Shown piece after piece: positions 4,044 through 16,781 of a stretch of 36,374 nt of DNA. Origin of the DNA: a virus (lineage: Duplodnaviria; Heunggongvirae; Uroviricota; Caudoviricetes). Below the pieces are notes generated by a model. That model was not told the origin of the DNA. It saw only the letters and a list, made by a program, of their open reading frames with translations, and searched no databases. The stretch lies in the IMG/VR virus record IMGVR_UViG_2531839477_000014; one strand, 5' to 3'. The first letter of the stretch is position 1, and each line of letters starts with the position of its first letter. The position numbers and the translations under genes were made by a program.

Positions 4044-4556
4044 TTTGTTCTCCACGTATATGCGCTGCACCGCGCTGAATTCGGGTAAAAGGAAGCCCTC
4101 ACCGTCCGGCGATTATTGAGTCAATTACATTTCCATAAATGCCCCCGTAGGGGCGGTTAGTTTCTCCACAAAACAGAGAAGAACACCTGCGGTGGCAGCC
4201 GCCCGGATGGATTGGGTTATGAGCCCGTCGTCCGGTGATGCTCTTCTCTGTTTTGTAAAAAGGACGGTACCAGCCGGAAGCAAGGGTACAAGCTGGTACC
4301 GCCAGGACTACACACAGCATAAAGTTGTGGTGCCGGGTGCCTCCCGGTGCCTGGCGAAGGTTGCACACCAGGCGGGTGGGTATCCACAGAAGGTCGACTG
4401 TCAGCCTCAACCTTAACCCGCGTGCGCTGAGCCGCATTCACCACAACGCTAAGGATTCTCTTTGGTTGAAAATACTTAGCTGTTATGTGCCTGTCTTTTC
4501 ACCACTTCAGGCTCGGTGGTATCCTTTTAAGCCCGTATACATAAAAGGAAAATCAA

Positions 4557-4802
4557 ATGACTTTTGATGAAAAAGAACTTGATAATGCAATTAATAAAAT
4601 CATCGTAACGTCGCTCTTTTCCTGTCTCAGCGACACTCAGCAGAAACAGTTCTACGAATCGGCTTTCAACATGATCGAGCGTTGTTGTTTCTGCGATGCC
4701 GACGAGTTACCTGAAAAAATCAGGAAACAGTTGGCTGATGCTCTTCGAGTGCGACTTTCTGACCAATTTTCTGAAATGTGCTCTCCGAATTTGGACAAAT
4801 AG
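4557..4802 (+). CDS. hypothetical small acidic protein, 81 aa
   Basis: ATG preceded by AAGGAA Shine-Dalgarno at 6 nt spacing; convergent with, and overlapping by 83 bp, the minus-strand ORF 4720..4995. Confidence 0.45.
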   Translation: MTFDEKELDNAINKIIVTSLFSCLSDTQQKQFYESAFNMIERCCFCDADELPEKIRKQLADALRVRLSDQFSEMCSPNLDK

Positions 4803-4995
4803 AAAAAGGCCATTTCCATTCAGGGTCTGATGGAAATACTTCAGCCTGTTCCAAAGCACGGCGTAAAGAGAACACAACTCCAGCCATAATCTGATGTTTC
4901 CCATTGGTCCAGCTATCGCCGCTCTGATCTACAGGGGCGGCTATGTCGTATGACCAAACGACTTCACAGTTATTGTTTAAAATCTGGACTTTCAT
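4720..4995 (-). CDS. hypothetical protein, first gene downstream of predicted PL (91 aa)
   Basis: ATG at 4995 with AGGTG Shine-Dalgarno 6 nt upstream; sits where lambda has N and HK022 has nun; no Arg-rich motif, so not an obvious N homolog. Confidence 0.45.
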   Translation of the reverse strand: MKVQILNNNCEVVWSYDIAAPVDQSGDSWTNGKHQIMAGVVFSLRRALEQAEVFPSDPEWKWPFSICPNSESTFQKIGQKVALEEHQPTVS

Positions 4996-5111
4996 TTCAT
5001 ACACCTGCTTTAACATGAGTGCCTAGTGGCACAACATGACTCAACGAATCATCCTGGACTTCATATGCCCCAGGCGGCTACTTCGTGGGCGTCCTGCCTG
5101 TTCGTTATCTT

Positions 5112-5149
5112 TGATATAAAATCTAACTTAACTTAGTTATTATGGCAAG
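5112..5149 (-). promoter_or_regulatory. candidate PL promoter with OL operator
   Basis: On minus strand: -35 TTGCCA (plus 5143-5148), 17-bp spacer, -10 TAGATT (plus 5120-5125); overlaps operator-like motif ATCTAACTTAACTTAGTT (5121-5138) shared with the cI-cro intergenic region. Confidence 0.5.
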
Positions 5150-5154
5150 AGACA

Positions 5155-5180
5155 GCACCAAACTTTTCTTAGTTCGGTGC
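5155..5180 (-). terminator. possible weak terminator hairpin downstream of cI
   Basis: Imperfect inverted repeat GCACCAAAC / GTTCGGTGC (one mismatch) between cI stop and PL -35; no strong U-tract. Confidence 0.25.
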
Positions 5181-9468: not shown

Positions 9469-9854
9469 AGCTAATACTGCCTTTTCCGCCCAGCGTGAAC
9501 ACGTACTGGCGACACCCCAACAAAGGGACGTTTGCAGGTAAGAGCCTGATAAGCGCGGCGGGGCGCAAATTCCAGAGCGCGGCATGTGCAGCAATAGTTG
9601 AGCAGTTACGTCGTCTGCCAAAACCAACGTCGGCACCTGCTTCAGTGGAGATCGTGTTGTTTCCTCCGGATAACCGGATCCGCGATCTGGACAACTATAA
9701 CAAGGCGCTGTTTGACGCCCTGACCCACGCGGGTGTGTGGGAAGACGACAGCCAGGTGAAAAGAATGCTGGTGGAGTGGGGACCGGTTATCCCGGAAGGG
9801 AAGGTCGAGATCACTATCAGTAAGTACGAGAAAACGGCGGGTGCAGACGCCTGA
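9465..9854 (+). CDS. rusA: RusA-family Holliday junction resolvase
   Basis: Conserved RusA motifs: PPSVNTYWRH near the N-terminus and RDLDNYNKALFDALT. Confidence 0.85.
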   Translation: MKLILPFPPSVNTYWRHPNKGTFAGKSLISAAGRKFQSAACAAIVEQLRRLPKPTSAPASVEIVLFPPDNRIRDLDNYNKALFDALTHAGVWEDDSQVKRMLVEWGPVIPEGKVEITISKYEKTAGADA

Positions 9855-9873
9855 GCAAAAGGAGAAACGAAGT

Positions 9874-10683
9874 ATGAATAATCTGATGGTCATTGATGGT
9901 ATTGAAGTTCGTCGTGATGCTTATGGGCGTTACAGCCTGAACGATCTGCATCGCGCAGCAGTAGCATCTGGTGCAAATGCCAGAACCAAGGAGCCAGGAA
10001 AGTTTCTTTCCAGCCAACAAACTGTTGAACTTGTTCATGAATTGACCAACACCCAGAATTTGGGTGTTGACCCGGTGAGTGTGATTCATGGGGGAAATGA
10101 ACGGGGAACTTATGTCTGCAAGGAACTGGTGTATGCCTATGCAATGTGGATCAGCCCGTCATTCCATCTGAAGGTGATCCGTACTTTCGATATGGTAACC
10201 AGCGTACCGGAAAAATTATCCGGGCAGGCTGCTGACAAGATGCAGGCTGGAGTGATTCTGCTGGACTTTATGCGCAGGGAGTTAAACCTGTCTAACTCTT
10301 CAGTGCTTGGGGCCTGTCAGAAACTCCAGGAGGCTGTTGGCTTACCGAATCTGGCACCGCGCTATGCCATTGATGCTCCTGCTGACGCGCCTGATGGCTC
10401 AAGCCGCCCGACACTGTCGCTGAGTGCACTGCTGAAACAGTATGGTATCCGCCTTACGGCTAATCAGGCATATCACCAGATGGCGAAGCTGGGGATCGTC
10501 GAGCAGCGCGAACGATACAGCCGTACCGCGATTAACAACATCAAAAAATTCTGGTCGCTGACGGCGAAAGGCTGCATGTTCGGCAAGAACATCACCAGTC
10601 CCGCAAATCCGCGTGAGACGCAGCCGCATTTCTTCGAATCCCGATTCCCTGAGCTGTTAAAGTTGCTCGATACCGTTCATTGA
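9874..10683 (+). CDS. KilA-N domain protein (antirepressor-like)
   Basis: N-terminal MNNLMVIDGIEVRRDAYGRYSLNDLHRAA is typical of KilA-N domains; start at ATG 9874 with AAGGAG Shine-Dalgarno. Confidence 0.7.
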   Translation: MNNLMVIDGIEVRRDAYGRYSLNDLHRAAVASGANARTKEPGKFLSSQQTVELVHELTNTQNLGVDPVSVIHGGNERGTYVCKELVYAYAMWISPSFHLKVIRTFDMVTSVPEKLSGQAADKMQAGVILLDFMRRELNLSNSSVLGACQKLQEAVGLPNLAPRYAIDAPADAPDGSSRPTLSLSALLKQYGIRLTANQAYHQMAKLGIVEQRERYSRTAINNIKKFWSLTAKGCMFGKNITSPANPRETQPHFFESRFPELLKLLDTVH

Positions 10684-10684
10684 G

Positions 10685-11680
10685 GTGACCGTGAGAGCAC
10701 TACTGACCCCTGAAATAGCCCCGCGTATGGGGATCGTATTGTTCAGACCAGGTTCAGAGCTGATGCCCCTGTTTATGCAGGGGCGTGTACTGCTGGAGCC
10801 TGAGCCGGAACGTTATTCATCTTTCGCCAGTGGTGCCGTTCCCGCGGCATCACAACCGCTGGCGGATGATCCTGCTGTTCGGGCCGTGTTCCGCAATGAG
10901 GCAGTGATCCGTCGTGCTGGTGGCGTGGAATGTCTTGAAAGCTGGTTACTTCGTGAAAAAGGCTGCCAGTGGCCTCATTCCGACTGGCATAGCGAGAACA
11001 TGACCACAATGCGACACGCTCCGGGCGCAATCCGTCTGTGCTGGCACTGTGATAACCAGCTGCGCGATCAGTTCACGGAACGGCTGGAATCAATGGCAAC
11101 GGATAACTGTGCCCGCTGGGTGTTGTCTGTTGTGCGTCGGGATCTCGGTTTTGATGATAGTCACGTTGTGACAATGCCGGAACTGTGCTGGTGGCTGATT
11201 CGTAATGACCTGGCGGATGCCTTACCGGAAAGTGCAGCCCGTAAGGCACTGAGATTACCAAAGCCTGTTGTGCCGTCTGTCACCCGGGAAAGTGACCTTG
11301 TGCCTTCGGTTCCTGCCACCAGCATCATCCAGGATAAGGCGAAAAAGGTGCTGACGCTGAAAGTGGATCCGGAGTCGCCGGAGTCTTTTATGTTACGCCC
11401 AAAACGTCGCCGCTGGGTTAATGAAAAGTACACGCGCTGGGTTAAGACACAGCCGTGTGCATGTTGTGGAAAGCCTGCTGATGATCCCCACCACTTGATA
11501 GGCCACGGTCAGGGTGGGATGGGTACAAAAGCGCATGACCTCTTTGTGTTGCCTTTGTGCAGAAAGCATCACGACGAGCTGCATGCGGATACCGTGGCAT
11601 TTGAAGAGAAGTATGGCTCCCAGCTGGAGCTGATATTTCGTTTTATCGATCGTGCGCTGGCAATTGGCGTACTGGCGTAA
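10685..11680 (+). CDS. DUF968/YdfU-like nin-region protein with C-terminal HNH-like zinc motif (GTG start uncertain)
   Basis: C-terminal CACCGKPADDPHHLIGHG...LPLCRKHHDELH Cys/His cluster; family assignment from memory. Confidence 0.55.
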   Translation: MTVRALLTPEIAPRMGIVLFRPGSELMPLFMQGRVLLEPEPERYSSFASGAVPAASQPLADDPAVRAVFRNEAVIRRAGGVECLESWLLREKGCQWPHSDWHSENMTTMRHAPGAIRLCWHCDNQLRDQFTERLESMATDNCARWVLSVVRRDLGFDDSHVVTMPELCWWLIRNDLADALPESAARKALRLPKPVVPSVTRESDLVPSVPATSIIQDKAKKVLTLKVDPESPESFMLRPKRRRWVNEKYTRWVKTQPCACCGKPADDPHHLIGHGQGGMGTKAHDLFVLPLCRKHHDELHADTVAFEEKYGSQLELIFRFIDRALAIGVLA

Positions 11681-11693
11681 GTGGAGAACGAGC

Positions 11694-12446
11694 ATGAACC
11701 TTGAAGCCTTACCAAAATATTACTCCCCAAAATCTCCAAAATTGAGTGATGACGCACCGGCGACAGGCTCGGGTGGTTTAACAATTACAGATGTGATGGC
11801 TGCGCAGGGGATGGTGCAGTCGAAAGCACCGCTTGGGTTTGCCTTATTCCTGGCAAAAGTTGGTGTTCAGGATCCTCAGTTTGCGATTGAAGGTCTGCTC
11901 AATTACGCGATGGCACTGGATAACCCGACATTGAACAAATTGAGTGAAGAAACCCGGCTACAGATCATTCCTTACCTTGTGAATTTTGCCTTTGCTGATT
12001 ATTCCAGGTCTGCGGCAAGTAAGGCTCGCTGTGAGCATTGTGCTGGTACTGGATTTCATAATGTATTGCGCGAAGTGGTGAAACACTCCAGAAGCGGGGA
12101 GTCTGTTATCAAGGAAGAGTGGGTGAAGGAACTATGTCAGCATTGTCATGGTAAGGGAGAAGTCAGCACAGCGTGCAGAGGGTGTAAGGGTAAAGGTATT
12201 GTCCTGGATGAAAAAAGAACCCGGCTTCATGGCACGCCTGTTTATAAGATTTGTGGGCGTTGCAATGGAAACCGGTTTAGCCGTTTACCAACCACACTGG
12301 CGCGGCTTCATGTCCAGAAGCTGGTACCAGACCTGACGGATTATCAGTGGTACAAAGGATATGCAGATGTCATTGATAAACTGGTTACAAAGTGCTGGCA
12401 GGAGGAAGCTTACGCTGAAGCACAATTGAGAAGGGTGACGAGATAA
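11694..12446 (+). CDS. late-gene antiterminator, Q-like (250 aa)
   Basis: Cys/His-rich segments (CEHCAGTGFH, CQHCHGKGEVSTACRGCKGKG, CGRCNGNRF); last gene before a promoter-hairpin-terminator arrangement and the lysis genes; start at ATG 11694 with GTGGAG Shine-Dalgarno. Confidence 0.65.
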   Translation: MNLEALPKYYSPKSPKLSDDAPATGSGGLTITDVMAAQGMVQSKAPLGFALFLAKVGVQDPQFAIEGLLNYAMALDNPTLNKLSEETRLQIIPYLVNFAFADYSRSAASKARCEHCAGTGFHNVLREVVKHSRSGESVIKEEWVKELCQHCHGKGEVSTACRGCKGKGIVLDEKRTRLHGTPVYKICGRCNGNRFSRLPTTLARLHVQKLVPDLTDYQWYKGYADVIDKLVTKCWQEEAYAEAQLRRVTR

Positions 12447-12477
12447 GCGATTTTCGCCGAAGATAACGACATAATGC

Positions 12478-12506
12478 TTGTGTTTCTCAAAAAATATGGA
12501 TAAGAT
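12478..12506 (+). promoter_or_regulatory. candidate late promoter (PR'-like)
   Basis: -35 TTGTGT (12478-12483), 17-bp spacer, -10 TAAGAT (12501-12506); followed by hairpin TCAACGAT-N15-ATCGTTGA (12511-12541). Confidence 0.4.
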
Positions 12507-12552
12507 TTTCTCAACGATGGGGCTTGTGTATCTATCGTTGAACGATTTTTAC

Positions 12553-12578
12553 GACCTCGCTATTGCGAGGTTTTTTTA
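12553..12578 (+). terminator. intrinsic terminator (tR'-like) downstream of the Q-dependent late promoter
   Basis: Stem ACCTCGC / GCGAGGT with loop TATT, followed by a run of seven T. Confidence 0.75.
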
Positions 12579-12613
12579 TGGTTTTTTCTATTCAATCTAC
12601 ATCAAAATCAATG

Positions 12614-12622
12614 TGTTATAAT
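12614..12622 (+). promoter_or_regulatory. extended -10 promoter element (TGnTATAAT) for the first moron gene
   Basis: TGTTATAAT about 38 nt upstream of ATG 12660; strong AAACAGGAGAA Shine-Dalgarno follows. Confidence 0.5.
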
Positions 12623-12659
12623 GTTTTCTGTAAAACAACATTAAAAACAGGAGAACATT

Positions 12660-12929
12660 ATGAAACTGACCTCTATCCATCTTGAAATACTACGTCGAGT
12701 GAATGAATTGCAGCCAAAGGATTCTAGAATTCAGGCTGCATCATTACCTCATCTCTCAGCAAAAGAGGTTAATTTTGCTATTTCAGATCTTGCTGATATA
12801 GGTTTTATCGATGTTATACGAAGCAAATCTGCCGAAGGTGGATTGATTGCTAATGAGATAACGTCAAAAGGTTTTGCTTTTTTGAGTGAGATTGGCGCTG
12901 AAAAAAATTCATCGATGAGCACTCATTGA
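12660..12929 (+). CDS. hypothetical small protein, possible winged-helix DNA binder (89 aa), AT-rich moron gene
   Basis: Strong RBS; segment HLEILRRVNELQP...GLIANEITSKGFAFL resembles a recognition-helix and wing pattern; atypically AT-rich by eye. Confidence 0.6.
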   Translation: MKLTSIHLEILRRVNELQPKDSRIQAASLPHLSAKEVNFAISDLADIGFIDVIRSKSAEGGLIANEITSKGFAFLSEIGAEKNSSMSTH

Positions 12930-13126
12930 TTTCTGCTTCAATCGGCTGCCAATTGGCAGCCTAAACTGTAAAGTGAATTTAAAATCGCCTACAATTGATG
13001 CTTAAATTTTGTTCTGTATCATCTGCAGGTTTAGGGATATCACAGTAGCTTTCTGACAAGAAGAGTTCTTTTCTTCTACCAATGAAGTGGTTATGTTAAC
13101 CTGCGCTAAATCGAGACTGGTGCGGA

Positions 13127-13933
13127 GTGGAATCGAAAGTGTCATATTTTTACAGAAGCAAGAATATTTCAGGTGTTTCTATAAATGAAGATAGCTTGAT
13201 TAGCTTAAGCACGGCAATTGTCGAACGCTGCGTTAAAATGAATGAGCAAGCTCAAAAGGAAAGTAGGGAAGTTTGTGCTCAATGTGTTTTTTTTATTTTG
13301 TTCGATGGTAAGGGATATAAAGTTGATTCTATCGGTGAGCTTGTGAAATACTTTAGACAGGCCACTAGGATTGATCAAATAATTTTTACTATTGAAACTT
13401 ATCAAAGTCGACAGTCTAACAGGATGAATGGATCTTGGATGGAGCTACGAATTGATGAGAGGAATTCAAATAGCAGCACAATGATTGTAGCATCGGAAGA
13501 TAATGAGTGGGTTGACTCGTTATGGATTACGATTCAGGATTTACTTAACAAGTGCAAAAATAAATTTAGATTTTTTAGAACAGCTTGGACTATGTTAAGT
13601 ATCCAGATTTCAGGTGTGACAGTTGGCTTTTTGCTTAGCTTATGGACAGCCTCAAAACTGGCGCCAAAACTATCAATCGATGGTGCATTTGCTTTATCAT
13701 TTATTTGTATCTTTATTTTGTTTTCGAACTTATGGAGCTTTGCTATTCCATTAATAATTAAGCTTATCGACTTTTTGTTTCCTAGTGTTAAGTTTGTTAT
13801 TAATGGTAAAAATTACTTTCACTGGAGTGTCCAGGCTATAATTGGAGCGATTGCCAGTGCGGTTATATTATATTTTATTAGCTCCATGTTGCTTTTTGCA
13901 TTAGAAATGTTAAATAGCATCATTAAGAAATAG
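13127..13933 (+). CDS. hypothetical membrane protein: ~150-aa N-terminal soluble domain + three predicted C-terminal TM helices (start may be GTG 13139)
   Basis: Long ORF in an AT-rich segment; hydrophobic stretches TAWTMLSIQISGVTVGFLLSLW, FALSFICIFILFSNLWSFAIPLII, AIIGAIASAVILYFISSMLLFAL; followed by an intrinsic terminator. Confidence 0.6.
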   Translation: MESKVSYFYRSKNISGVSINEDSLISLSTAIVERCVKMNEQAQKESREVCAQCVFFILFDGKGYKVDSIGELVKYFRQATRIDQIIFTIETYQSRQSNRMNGSWMELRIDERNSNSSTMIVASEDNEWVDSLWITIQDLLNKCKNKFRFFRTAWTMLSIQISGVTVGFLLSLWTASKLAPKLSIDGAFALSFICIFILFSNLWSFAIPLIIKLIDFLFPSVKFVINGKNYFHWSVQAIIGAIASAVILYFISSMLLFALEMLNSIIKK

Positions 13934-13966
13934 TTAATGAATTAGTTATAATTACATCAATTCTAT

Positions 13967-13990
13967 GGCTGCCAAATGGTGGCCTTTTTT
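13967..13990 (+). terminator. intrinsic terminator after the membrane-protein moron gene
   Basis: GGCTGCCAAATGGTGGCC hairpin (with G-U pairs) followed by TTTTTT; shares the GGCTGCCAA arm with the palindrome at 12944-12961. Confidence 0.5.
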
Positions 13991-14041
13991 ATTCCTCTCA
14001 TTTCTATTTCTGAGAGGACTCACTGCAATAAGAGGTGGCTA

Positions 14042-14428
14042 ATGTCCGATCCGATTTCCGGCACAGGGTTAGCTGGTGGAGCCCTAACGGGCGCTAGTAT
14101 TTATGGACTGCTGACCGGAACTGATTACGGCGTTGTATTTGGCGCATTTGCAGGGGCTGTATTCTATATAGCAACAGCAGCAGATCTGAGTGCATCGCGT
14201 CGACTGGCATATTTTATCGTGTCATATATTGCTGGGATCCTTTGCTCTGGGTTGGTTGGCTCCAAGCTGGCAAACTTGACCGGATACAGTGATAAACCTC
14301 TGGATGCTATTGGTGCCGTAATCGTCTCTGCTTTAGCCGTTAAAATCCTGACGTTCCTGAATAATCAGGATATCGGCTCGCTGGTGGCGCTCATAACGCG
14401 CCGGGGAGGTTCAGGTGGAGCTAAATGA
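14042..14428 (+). CDS. holin-like membrane protein (128 aa)
   Basis: ATG 14042 with GAGGTGG Shine-Dalgarno; Gly/Ala-rich hydrophobic helices; first gene of the lysis cassette. Confidence 0.55.
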   Translation: MSDPISGTGLAGGALTGASIYGLLTGTDYGVVFGAFAGAVFYIATAADLSASRRLAYFIVSYIAGILCSGLVGSKLANLTGYSDKPLDAIGAVIVSALAVKILTFLNNQDIGSLVALITRRGGSGGAK

Positions 14429-14696
14429 CCCGACAGCAACTATTAATGCGCTGTTATGTGCTTGTGTTGTTATTACTCTGATGTTTTATCGTCGTGGTGA
14501 TTCGCGGCATCGTCCTTGGGTTTCACGTTTAGCCTGGCTGATTACTGTTACATACAGTGCTGTTCCGTTGGCCTATCTCTGTGGGATTTATCCTCACTCC
14601 TCATGGCTCATTATCGTGGCGAATACTATTTTTCTTTCCGTGCTGGTGGCCGTCAGAGGCAACGTTGCACGTTTGGTTGATCATCTGAGGCACTAA
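14415..14696 (+). CDS. second small lysis-cassette membrane protein (holin or antiholin-like, 93 aa)
   Basis: GTG start after GGGGAGGT; three hydrophobic segments; stop overlaps endolysin start (TAATG). Confidence 0.5.
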   Translation: MELNDPTATINALLCACVVITLMFYRRGDSRHRPWVSRLAWLITVTYSAVPLAYLCGIYPHSSWLIIVANTIFLSVLVAVRGNVARLVDHLRH

Positions 14697-15310
14697 TGAA
14701 CCAACAATTATTTCAAAAGGCGGCTGGTATTAGTGCCGGGCTGGCTGCGCGCTGGTTTCCGCACATTGATGCGGCGATGAAGGAATTCGGCATTACAGTA
14801 CCCGCGGATCAGGCAATGTTTATCGCTCAGGTAGGCCATGAGTCGATGGGGTTTAGCGCCGTAGTTGAAAATTTTAACTACACACCATCTGCGCTGGTGG
14901 CGACGTTCGGAAAGAGGATCACACAGCAGCAGGCTGATGCCCTTGGCAGAACATCCGGACATGCAGCTCGTCAGGATGCTATTGCCAATCTGGTGTATAG
15001 CAACCGACTGGGTAACAAAGCCCCCGGTGATGGCTGGAAATATCGTGGTAGAGGATTAATTCAAATCACTGGCCTCCATAATTATCGCATCTGTGGTGCG
15101 GCGCTGAAGTTAGATCTGGTGACTTCACCTGAACAACTGGAACAGGAGCTACAGGCGGCGCGCTCAGCTGCATGGTTCTACACCTCTAAAGGCTGCATGA
15201 TCTACGGTGCCGATATTAACCGTGTTACGCGCATCATTAACGGCGGTCTGAACGGTATTGAGGATCGTAAGGTCCGATACAACAAGGCGCGGGCGGCGCT
15301 GCTGGTATGA
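14696..15310 (+). CDS. endolysin, glycoside hydrolase family 19 (chitinase-like) type
   Basis: Fold-typical segments FIAQVGHESMGF and GRGLIQITGLHNY; positioned between holins and spanins. Confidence 0.8.
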   Translation: MNQQLFQKAAGISAGLAARWFPHIDAAMKEFGITVPADQAMFIAQVGHESMGFSAVVENFNYTPSALVATFGKRITQQQADALGRTSGHAARQDAIANLVYSNRLGNKAPGDGWKYRGRGLIQITGLHNYRICGAALKLDLVTSPEQLEQELQAARSAAWFYTSKGCMIYGADINRVTRIINGGLNGIEDRKVRYNKARAALLV

Positions 15311-15699
15311 AGATGAGTTATTGGGCGCTCATTTTAACGTTTATTGCTTGTGTTGCTGGTGGTCTTGTCTGGTCAGCGAATCACTATCATGGAAAGTTTC
15401 TGGAGGAGCAGAAGCGTGCTGACGCTGCGGAACAGAGAGCTGATTCTACTGAGGCTATCACCGCGAATGTTCTGCGTACTATGGCAATAACGAACATCAT
15501 TCAGGAGGCGAATCAACATGCAAAACAGCAGATCGCACTGGAGTCACAGAGAACCCAGGAATATATCAAAGTGGCTGTTGCGAGTGATGATTGCGCTTCA
15601 CGTCCTGTGCCTGCTACCGCTGCTGACCGGTTGCGGAAGTACGCGGACAGTTTACGTGAACATTCCGGCGGCACCACTGCCAGCCAGCCTGACTTCTGA
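15307..15699 (+). CDS. Rz-like inner-membrane spanin (i-spanin)
   Basis: N-terminal TM helix (YWALILTFIACVAGGLVW) followed by a charged helical periplasmic domain; ATGA overlap with endolysin stop. Confidence 0.7.
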   Translation: MKMSYWALILTFIACVAGGLVWSANHYHGKFLEEQKRADAAEQRADSTEAITANVLRTMAITNIIQEANQHAKQQIALESQRTQEYIKVAVASDDCASRPVPATAADRLRKYADSLREHSGGTTASQPDF

Positions 15700-15865
15700 A
15701 ACACCGATTCCAATTATACCCAGTTCACTGACATATGGTGCTAGTCTGGAGTTGAATGTGGCTCTGTTGTCAGCGTTAGGACAATGTAATTTTGATAAAA
15801 CCGGAATCAGAAATATTGAATCACGGCGCGCTATTTTGCATTCAAAGTATAAATATCCAGAGTGA
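15587..15865 (+). CDS. Rz1-like outer-membrane lipoprotein spanin (o-spanin), alternate frame overlapping Rz
   Basis: Lipobox LLTGC in MIALHVLCLLPLLTGCGS; Pro-rich mature region; begins inside Rz in another frame and extends past the Rz stop. Confidence 0.6.
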   Translation: MIALHVLCLLPLLTGCGSTRTVYVNIPAAPLPASLTSETPIPIIPSSLTYGASLELNVALLSALGQCNFDKTGIRNIESRRAILHSKYKYPE

Positions 15866-16198
15866 TGTTATTTATTATAAAGATATGATGCATAAAGTTT
15901 AGGTGCTCCAGCTTCTATAGTGTAATGTAAAAGCTTACATAAAGTATGTCATCACATAGAATATGTATCGTGATTAATTATTAGCCCAACCTTTTGGGCT
16001 AGTATGAGAGAGGAAGTTAATACAAATCGTTTGTTGATGATTAAAAATGTGCATAGCAGAGTTAGTTATCAGTTGGTTCATTACGTATCATTTTTGTGCG
16101 GATTATCGATGGTACAACTGGTAGGGCATCTAATCTTTAGATAGTGCCTGTGGTGCTTAGTTACGATAAAATAACCTTTTCATTAAGTGGAGGTTATT

Positions 16199-16654
16199 AT
16201 GTGGCATACATTACTTAACTGGCATTCGGGAACAGAGTGGTCTGCTGTATCGGCTTTAGGTTCAGTTGTATCGGCTTTAGGTTCAATTTTAACTGTTATA
16301 TTAGGTTTTTGGGCAATGAATGTTTGGCGGCGACAGGAGGCTCTGAAGGCCAAAATGGCTCTGAAAATGGCAGTGGCTGATTATTCAAATGCATTATCAC
16401 AGCTACCTTTATCTCTTAGTCGTAATGTTCGTATTGAAAAAAGAGCCGAGCTACGAGAGTTAAGCCATAAATTAAATGCTATTAATAATGCTTTTTTGAT
16501 ATGCGAGCATATGTTGGAAAAATACCCAAGTGTAAACAGCGGTTGTCGTTCTTTATCTGTTGCCCACAAAGAATATATTAGAATGAGAGATAATAGCATT
16601 CAGGCGAAATGTATTTGTCATAATATTCTTTCAGAACCGTTTGTATTCAAATGA
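16199..16654 (+). CDS. hypothetical membrane-anchored protein (151 aa), AT-rich moron gene
   Basis: ATG 16199 with GTGGAGG Shine-Dalgarno; N-terminal TM helix (SAVSALGSVVSALGSILTVILGFWAMNVW) then helical soluble domain; preceded by ~330 bp AT-rich non-coding DNA. Confidence 0.6.
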   Translation: MWHTLLNWHSGTEWSAVSALGSVVSALGSILTVILGFWAMNVWRRQEALKAKMALKMAVADYSNALSQLPLSLSRNVRIEKRAELRELSHKLNAINNAFLICEHMLEKYPSVNSGCRSLSVAHKEYIRMRDNSIQAKCICHNILSEPFVFK

Positions 16655-16781
16655 AAATTAACGATTGGTATTTATTTGCCGTCTGTTCATTGGATTGAAA
16701 AGTCTATTTAACAAACCGTGTTAAAGCGGTTTTTGATTGCAGTTATGGTTAGATATTTAACGAAAACTACAGGGATAATAG

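Follow-up and report, generated by a model that had tools for sequence, protein, structure and literature searches.

Lambdoid phages carry accessory genes called morons (the Hendrix/Juhala concept), with Shiga toxin (Stx) and DNA methylase genes as examples of cargo, and in Stx phages the stx genes are placed between the antiterminator gene Q with its tR' terminator and the holin gene. The locus studied here belongs to a stretch of 36,374 nucleotides (nt), IMG/VR record IMGVR_UViG_2531839477_000014, hereafter called the window, which in its whole length corresponds to a complete e14/SfV-like lambdoid prophage of Escherichia coli. It is an AT-rich island with two genes, named gene A and gene B, and it resembles the lambdoid morons in its location after tR' and before the holin gene, in its deviating base composition and in the presence of a promoter-like element and a terminator for each unit. 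It differs from them in that its cargo belongs to no named family and is not a toxin or a methylase, in that two unrelated morons appear to be stacked, and in that the promoters are predicted. The locus is of a known kind, moron cargo in a textbook slot, and what is new is that gene B represents an uncharacterized family of about 230 clusters.

Small and often solitary prophage-borne proteins of the inner membrane that act in exclusion or abortive infection include RexA/RexB of lambda, SieB of P22, gp15 of HK97 and Imm of T4, and the rex and sie genes are located in immunity or early regions. The arrangement of gene B, a predicted cytoplasmic domain followed by a transmembrane (TM) module, recalls the RexA sensor and the RexB membrane protein combined in a single chain, and its expression in the lysogen would likewise be expected. 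However, the likeness is one of logic only, because neither sequence nor structural similarity to these proteins was detected and gene B occupies another genomic slot. Another exclusion protein that acts at the membrane level is the prophage-encoded SieA of P22 (PMC10461980). SNIPE is a nuclease bound to the membrane that cleaves the DNA of phages while it is being injected, with a single N-terminal TM segment, a DUF4041 domain and a C-terminal GIY-YIG nuclease in this order (PMC13190303). Gene B was rejected as a SNIPE protein, because its domain order is the opposite, with three TM segments, and neither DUF4041 nor GIY-YIG was matched in Pfam. Tai (tail assembly inhibition), which lies upstream of the module for packaging (PMC11364771), and other prophage moron defenses are comparable as single-gene anti-phage cargo at moron loci of lambdoid prophages and satellites, but Tai belongs to another protein family, is not membrane-bound and lies in a slot other than the Q-holin slot of gene B. 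GiPD474 was also compared and was discarded, as both its family and its slot are different.

Composition and mosaic structure of the island

A first-pass annotation, made by a model from the sequence alone, had described an AT-rich insert with two genes between a tR'-like terminator and the holin gene, and this description agrees with the gene order and with the base composition calculated along the window. The GC content was 0.351 in the region 12450-13990 versus 0.514 in the whole window, and 300-nt windows gave values of 0.31-0.37 inside the island versus about 0.48-0.55 on either side, this being the lowest-GC kilobase of the window. The island extends from 12577 to 13990, between the Q/tR' terminator and the holin gene, and its right edge is found at the terminator of gene B.

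The left edge was located by comparison with sibling prophages that lack the cassette (loci retrieved for comparison are designated by L numbers). In the siblings L027-L029, which have the same Q with 94% nt identity, the blastn homology that starts in Q stops at 12576/12577, the end of the tR' hairpin, and other cargo is present in the same slot before their holin genes, either a 111-amino acid (aa) open reading frame (ORF) or a 67-aa ORF plus a DNA methyltransferase. In about 250 E. coli genomes, the sequence in common beyond Q covered no more than its first 76-127 nt. The annotation had also assigned this position to the classic moron slot, and the comparison with the cassette-free siblings confirmed it: the insertion point is variable, the base composition deviates and the cargo has its own terminator.

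A second junction was found inside the island. The locus L043, with 77% nt identity, is collinear with positions 13090-15267 of the window, which include gene B, both holin genes and the endolysin gene, and not with the region to the left of 13090. Because the homology breaks at 12576/12577 in the siblings and at 13090 in L043, different histories were attributed to units 1 and 2 of the island (Table 1). According to these sequence comparisons, the island very probably consists of two independently acquired morons, one stacked behind the other in the variable slot that separates Q/tR' from the holin gene.

The whole cassette was present in 41 of 5,426 complete E. coli genomes. Its copies in E. 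coli are at least 99.6% identical, while the adjoining holins are 92.8% identical and the endolysins only 66-68%, and this near-identity amid diverged neighbors points to one recent origin followed by spread through recombination. The endolysin alleles with only 66-68% identity to the GH19 gene of the window (14697-15267) were observed in L001, L019, L034 and others, where the cassette is almost identical. These allele differences of endolysin and holin beside a near-identical cassette place recombination breakpoints within the lysis module and just to the right of the cassette.

An N6/N4 DNA methyltransferase (PF01555) was a very frequent occupant of the Q-holin slot, with or without a B-like gene after it. 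Such methyltransferase genes were found upstream of gene B homologues in L002, L003, L007, L009, L012, L015 and L016, and, in the cassette-free sibling L028, at 4104-5156. A methylase-gene B pair was considered and rejected, because the methylase fills the slot without gene B, and gene B occurs without methylase in the window and in another relative. For the same reason, the methylase has been treated as another independent cargo gene.

The proteins encoded by the island and their relatives

The start of gene B was placed at the GTG codon at 13139, which gives a protein of 264 aa, because 62 of 62 aligned relatives begin at this position with M-x-x-Y-L-R-D, in agreement with PGAP. The gene had been described as 13127-13933 with 268 aa, of which the frame and the end were retained and the start was corrected. 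The soluble N-terminal domain (about 148 aa) and the three TM helices proposed for it were recovered in the topology analysis by hydropathy, by the secondary structure of an AlphaFold2 model and by the positive-inside pattern. The family-wide numbers of lysine and arginine residues, 3.5 ahead of TM1, 1.2 for loop 1 and 3.3 for loop 2, predict a topology with the N-terminus inside and the C-terminus outside. In the AlphaFold2 model, the confidently predicted N-terminal domain (pLDDT about 85) shows the order b-a-b-b-a-b-b-b-a and is followed by three long helices predicted with low confidence (pLDDT 45-63).

In the soluble domain, D7, R54, D56, G59, A75, E79 and W124 are shared by at least 90% of the 62 aligned sequences, as are Q156, S196, W199, P215 and F219 in the membrane part, in which N197 (87%, within the S196-N197-x-W199 motif) and a GxxxG motif of TM1 (G159/G163) are also conserved. 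In the enteric phage-borne clade, which includes gene B of the window, D7 is replaced by S or N, R54 by L, Y, T or W, and R80 by Q, K or S, residues that are kept in about 80-92% of the aligned family, and D56, G59, W124 and the membrane motifs are retained. In the alignment, D7, R54 and R80 seem to have gone as one charge network, and their joint loss would be better explained by a structural salt bridge than by a catalytic site. A PD-(D/E)xK nuclease, for which an 'RFDxKGY' motif and an EcoRII echo could be invoked, was rejected because the predicted order of secondary structures is unlike the alpha-beta-beta-beta-alpha-beta core and because D7, R54 and R80 are lost in the enteric clade. No catalytic motif was conserved across the family alignment.

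Gene B had no match in Pfam, NCBIfam or the sequence profiles of the PDB, and only families of 'unknown function' were matched in PHROGs. Its model had no significant match among solved (PDB) or viral predicted (BFVD) structures. Neither a toxin nor a virulence family was found for gene A or gene B in Pfam, PHROGs and NCBIfam, and the only trait in common with the Shiga toxin cargo is the position. The inability of the annotation to place either protein in a named characterized family was therefore borne out by the profile searches in Pfam, NCBIfam, PHROGs and PADLOC.

The gene B family comprised 230 representatives at 50% clustering in an exhaustive profile search, 126 of them at E ≤ 1e-30, and nearly all of its members are full-length proteins of 255-270 aa. 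A word-indexed search had under-reported the family, with 9-11 proteins versus the 230 clusters of the exhaustive search, and a genome scan recovered just two distant loci. The ratio of nonsynonymous to synonymous substitution rates (dN/dS) was 0.14-0.16 when gene B was compared with relatives of 77-79% identity, which indicates purifying selection. The gene was AT-richer than its flanks in 16 of the 17 relatives' loci (for example, GC 0.29 versus 0.53, or 0.39 versus 0.62), the exception being L053 (0.41 versus 0.40). No homologue was found in 50,697 deposited phage genomes or in 72,556 plasmids, and a pattern scan of IMG/VR did not recover the distant clade. On this comparative evidence, gene B is a selected, mobile and solitary gene for a predicted membrane protein of an unnamed family.

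Gene B was intact in 22 of 23 E. coli copies of the cassette. The exception, L018 (GCA_900603045.1), has an 11-bp deletion that causes a frameshift and a stop at codon 102. In the Hafnia/Citrobacter copy (metagenome-assembled genomes L012/L013), an in-frame TAA is found at codon 35 (L012) and the protein begins at Met38, with 231 aa; the phrog_30208 model also starts at M38 and appears to be built on the 231-aa form. A truncated gene B annotated in L021 was dismissed as a gene-calling artifact, because its DNA matches the window with 100% identity. Cloning and mutagenesis can be based directly on the family alignment and the revised start codon, together with the topology and the conserved residues.

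In Enterobacterales, gene B is located directly upstream of the holin gene wherever the downstream gene is visible, in combination with three different Q families and several lysis cassettes (PF16931, PF05449 and GH19; PF16931, PF05449 and GH108; or PF04971 and lysozyme). Its upstream neighbor is gene A in this cassette only; elsewhere it is an N6/N4 methylase or a small ORF, and in Edwardsiella there is none. Outside Enterobacterales, gene B is solitary in small islets, some of them beside remnants of integrase, resolvase or transposase genes, and no neighbor was common to any two of the loci compared. The neighbors of distant relatives include AAA_15/21 ATPase, integrase and resolvase genes, and one distant relative directly follows a HigB/HigA-like pair. 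A protein matching the 'dCTPase' model of PADLOC (1e-95) is encoded directly upstream of gene B in L057, and a mad3/mad8 ATPase gene adjoins it in L062. Ordinary housekeeping genes and hypothetical proteins were as frequent among the neighbors as these.

A clear defense-island context was observed in L066 (metagenome contig CEQE01324501.1, 323-7120), where the gene B homologue is located between the genes of a 770-aa TIR protein (PADLOC candidate PDC-S73, E 3e-143) and of an 873-aa ATPase of the ABC/SMC type with a Ppl/AriA-like C-terminus.

Gene A is probably a small winged-helix protein, as judged from profile matches. It is covered by phrog_32916 in 89 of 89 residues (E 3e-61), and the winged-helix assignment of the annotation found weak but consistent matches to DUF2513 (PF10711; E 2.4e-4), HTH_45 (E 0.026), Lrs14 (0.06), MarR and RPC39, the DUF2513 score of 21.8 bits being below the Pfam gathering cut-off of 29.6. 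DUF2513 is a family whose function is not known; it aligned weakly, although over nearly its full length (model positions 9-81 of 100), with gene A and with both Klebsiella homologues. Gene A and both Klebsiella homologues have the C-terminal 'ITxKGxxFL' helix that is typical of DUF2513 and of other small winged-helix proteins (HTH_45, Lrs14 and MarR), and the motif ITSKGFxFLxExG is invariant across gene A and the Klebsiella homologues. The single-sequence AlphaFold2 model, with a pLDDT of 54, was too poor to confirm the fold or to be used as a query.

Among 5.8 billion proteins, essentially only gene A itself was retrieved. When deposited phages were searched by tblastn, homologues of 79 aa with 34-37% identity were found in three Klebsiella temperate phages. 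There, the A-like gene is alone between a Q-like antiterminator gene and the holin gene, in the order tR'-like hairpin, TGgTAAAAT, AGGAG, gene and strong terminator. Since these homologues stand alone with the same layout, A-type genes have been considered self-contained morons of the Q-holin slot. In the literature searched, genes A and B were not mentioned by accession, and neither were DUF2513 and PF10711.

Transcription and translation signals proposed in the annotation were recovered as sequence features (Table 1). The tR'-like terminator was supported by its stem, T-run and folding energy, the extended -10 element and the strong ribosome-binding site of gene A were found as sequence matches, and the intrinsic terminator of gene B was confirmed. 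The extended -10 element was missed by a simple promoter scan as a result of its weak -35, and the equivalent element TGgTAAAAT occupies the same relative place before the Klebsiella gene A homologue, which has a strong terminator of its own. Promoter-like sites were not enriched over shuffled sequence. The hairpin located after gene A, absent from the annotation, shares 84% identity with the stem of the gene B terminator. All four close enteric relatives that were aligned have a hairpin with a T-run behind gene B, and in Edwardsiella the hairpin behind it has an interrupted T tract.

The island contains two short duplicated elements, the promoter-like AATnAATnnGTTATAAT at 12606-12622 and 13936-13952 (82% identical copies) and the hairpin GGCTGCCAAnTGGnnGCCT at 12944-12962 and 13967-13985 (84% identical). 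The second promoter-like copy lies only 14 nt ahead of the terminator hairpin, and a similar pairing follows the Edwardsiella homologue (L047, 7800-7862). These duplicated elements could be recombination scars, shared regulatory sites or the product of chance.

Proposed role of gene B and competing explanations

Gene B may be a membrane-level phage exclusion factor or a gated abortive-infection factor, a reading to which a probability of about 0.35-0.4 was assigned on the basis of its architecture, its mobility signature, its slot and its partial association with defense or toxin-antitoxin (TA) genes. In the lysogen, the cassette would be transcribed from its own promoter(s) and transcription would stop at the terminator before the holin gene, and after induction the Q-modified RNA polymerase would read through the cassette. 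In lambdoid phages, the Q-modified polymerase is expected to pass terminators such as that of gene B. At the inner membrane, the gene B product would act as a single-protein protection factor against superinfecting phages, with a cytoplasmic domain that would receive a signal or a partner and an oligomerizing TM module that would either block DNA entry (exclusion) or dissipate the membrane potential (abortive infection). Gene A would encode a separate small DNA-binding regulator, which may tune its own expression or that of the cassette, and gene B would work independently of it.

Several points weigh against this proposal. Genes A and B each matched 0 families of PADLOC-DB v2.0.0 at E ≤ 1. 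Defense or TA-type neighbors were found in about 5 of about 18 informative non-enteric loci, a raw count from short contigs without a background rate, and matches to single-protein hidden Markov models of PADLOC are not equivalent to system calls. Many distant loci have housekeeping neighbors (MltA, ApaG, SelO, OsmC or MFS) or hypothetical proteins. The sensing role of the N-terminal domain is a conjecture for a domain without a recognizable fold, and the enteric clade lacks D7, R54 and R80, which are nearly invariant elsewhere, so that its activity could differ from that of the rest of the family. A constitutive depolarizer produced early in the late operon should set off the holin too soon, and any toxic activity would therefore need gating. 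The promoter activity of the cassette corresponds to consensus matches only.

If gene B protects lysogens, a compact single-gene family that acts at the membrane and has no recognizable fold would be added to the anti-phage repertoire, and the Q-holin leader of e14/SfV-like prophages would be marked as a slot for defense cargo, beside the immunity-region and packaging-proximal slots. As a tentative extension, gene B is possibly the first known member of a new family of single-gene anti-phage proteins anchored in the membrane, in which a previously unseen cytoplasmic fold would gate a conserved three-TM module. Equally tentative is the corollary that prophages in Enterobacterales and small islets in other Proteobacteria would spread this family, and that the carrier phage could also use gene B in its own lytic cycle, since the gene comes first in the late operon, just before the holin gene.

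A lysogenic-conversion membrane protein with a role in non-phage physiology (envelope stress, ion homeostasis or niche fitness), accompanied by gene A as an unrelated small regulator, is a doubtful alternative. It would fit the variety of hosts and sources of the carriers (human, poultry, pig, panda and seawater) and the many distant relatives amid housekeeping genes without a defense context, and the conserved polar residues of the TM segments, together with faint and non-significant structural echoes of CorA-type channels, would be consistent with a transport or channel role. However, no transporter or enzyme family was matched by gene B, and its family is patchy, infrequent (41 of the 5,426 E. 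coli genomes), strongly AT-rich and tied to mobile elements, a pattern more typical of conflict genes.

The constant position of gene B directly before the holin gene in the enteric contexts with a visible downstream gene, across three Q families, and its collinearity with the holin and endolysin genes in L043 would also agree with a late function, either as a lysis accessory that controls holin timing in an antiholin-like manner or in the exclusion of secondary infection during lytic growth, and the Q-modified polymerase is expected to pass its terminator. This explanation is nevertheless unlikely, because gene B has its own terminator ahead of the holin gene, its distant relatives lie amid housekeeping or island genes and have no lysis genes in their vicinity, and the family is missing from the deposited phage genomes and its distant clade from IMG/VR in the scans described above. 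In addition, a B-like gene is missing in a Klebsiella phage from the interval that separates Q from a 128-aa holin, the latter being PF16931-like by length only. As a holin or antiholin itself, gene B was rejected for the absence of a Pfam holin match, for the lack of profile similarity to both adjacent holins (hhalign probability 0.1%) and for its 148-aa soluble domain.

The annotation had interpreted the cassette as a regulator plus a membrane effector, and gene A could then be a winged-helix regulator or an antitoxin that controls or neutralizes gene B in a two-component system. Both genes are adjacent and on the same strand in 23 of 23 E. coli copies examined and in the 41 complete genomes, with at least 99.6% identity while the flanks diverge, the hairpin after gene A has no T-run, so that both genes may be co-transcribed, and two short elements are duplicated around both units. 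However, this co-occurrence is confined to one near-clonal cassette and has, as a consequence, no independent evolutionary weight. All divergent gene A homologues are alone in the slot, and an A-like neighbor is missing from all gene B homologues, whose identities range between 79% and about 22%: in six enteric contexts apart from this one and in about 18 loci of environmental or genomic origin, no gene A was found beside them, and tblastn with gene A was also negative there. With the mosaic junction at 13090 between both genes, a single system is improbable and the earlier interpretation is not supported. The more certain result is a caution: two neighboring genes that are AT-rich and come with promoter and terminator can mimic a system that their relatives reveal as independent passengers, and a pairing of gene A with gene B would misdirect experiments.

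Decaying or non-functional passenger DNA, to which the frameshift of L018, the stop at codon 35 in Hafnia/Citrobacter and the near absence of gene A relatives among 5.8 billion proteins might point, is very improbable in view of the dN/dS of gene B (0.14-0.16), its full-length architecture in about 230 clusters and its integrity in 22 of 23 E. coli copies, and of the strong ribosome-binding site, the 34-37% identity across genera and the invariant C-terminal motif of gene A.

Prophage setting and coordinates

The features of the island and of its surroundings are collected in Table 1. The gene order around the island is syntenic with NZ_CP024273 (neighbors ymfK, ymfT, ymfL ... ymfR), and the region 11600-15400 is 100% identical to the ENA contig L021. 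No tRNA or Rfam element was found above threshold in 12300-14200.

Table 1. Features of the AT-rich island and neighboring genes, with positions in the window.
Feature	Position	Strand	Details
KilA-N protein	9841-10683		
DUF968/HNH protein	10685-11680		
Antiterminator Q (PF03589)	11694-12446		250 aa; start according to PGAP
Q-proximal late leader	12447-12552	+	Expected pR'/qut region (promoter predicted); common to sibling prophages without the cassette
tR'-like intrinsic terminator	12553-12580	+	8-bp stem (5 GC pairs) at 12553-12572, 4-nt loop, T-run; folding free energy (dG) -13.7 kcal/mol, z -4.98
Unit 1	12577-13090		Extended -10 promoter-like site, strong ribosome-binding site, gene A, hairpin
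Extended -10 promoter-like TGtTATAAT	12614-12622	+	Sequence match; upstream of gene A
Shine-Dalgarno AGGAG	12649-12653	+	6 nt before the ATG of gene A
Gene A	12660-12929	+	ATG start, 89 aa, isoelectric point 6.3; probably a DUF2513-like small winged-helix protein
Perfect hairpin GGCTGCCAATTGGCAGCC after gene A	12944-12962	+	No T-run; dG -15.7 kcal/mol, z -4.4
Mosaic junction and conserved upstream region of gene B	13090-13138	+	GGAG at 13123-13126; L043 collinearity and upstream alignment
Unit 2	13091-13990		Gene B and intrinsic terminator
Gene B, N-terminal alpha/beta domain (predicted cytoplasmic)	13139-13582	+	aa 1-148; no recognizable fold
Gene B, C-terminal three-TM module (predicted) and stop codon	13583-13933	+	aa 149-264
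Gene B intrinsic terminator	13967-13990	+	7-bp stem (13967-13984) and TTTTTT; dG -11.4 kcal/mol
Holin (PF16931)	14042-14428	+	Phage_holin_8, E 8.5e-35; phrog_198 holin; immediately downstream of the island
Holin (PF05449)	14415-14696		
GH19 endolysin	14696-15310		Spanin-like ORFs beyond

The mechanical ORF of Q begins at a GTG codon at 11652 and overlaps the DUF968 gene; the start at 11694 is backed by PGAP and by the PHROG and Pfam matches, which begin at residue 15.

A second AT-rich island (GC 0.33-0.40) was observed at 15750-16700, between the spanin-like ORFs and the HNH/terminase genes. It includes a 155-aa ORF (16187-16654, + strand), which matched 0 families of PADLOC-DB v2.0.0 at E ≤ 1; this ORF has an N-terminal hydrophobic segment and matches phrog_6169 (unknown function). 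The position of this second island corresponds to the 'upstream of packaging' moron slot, where Tai systems are located in phi80-like phages (PMC11364771).

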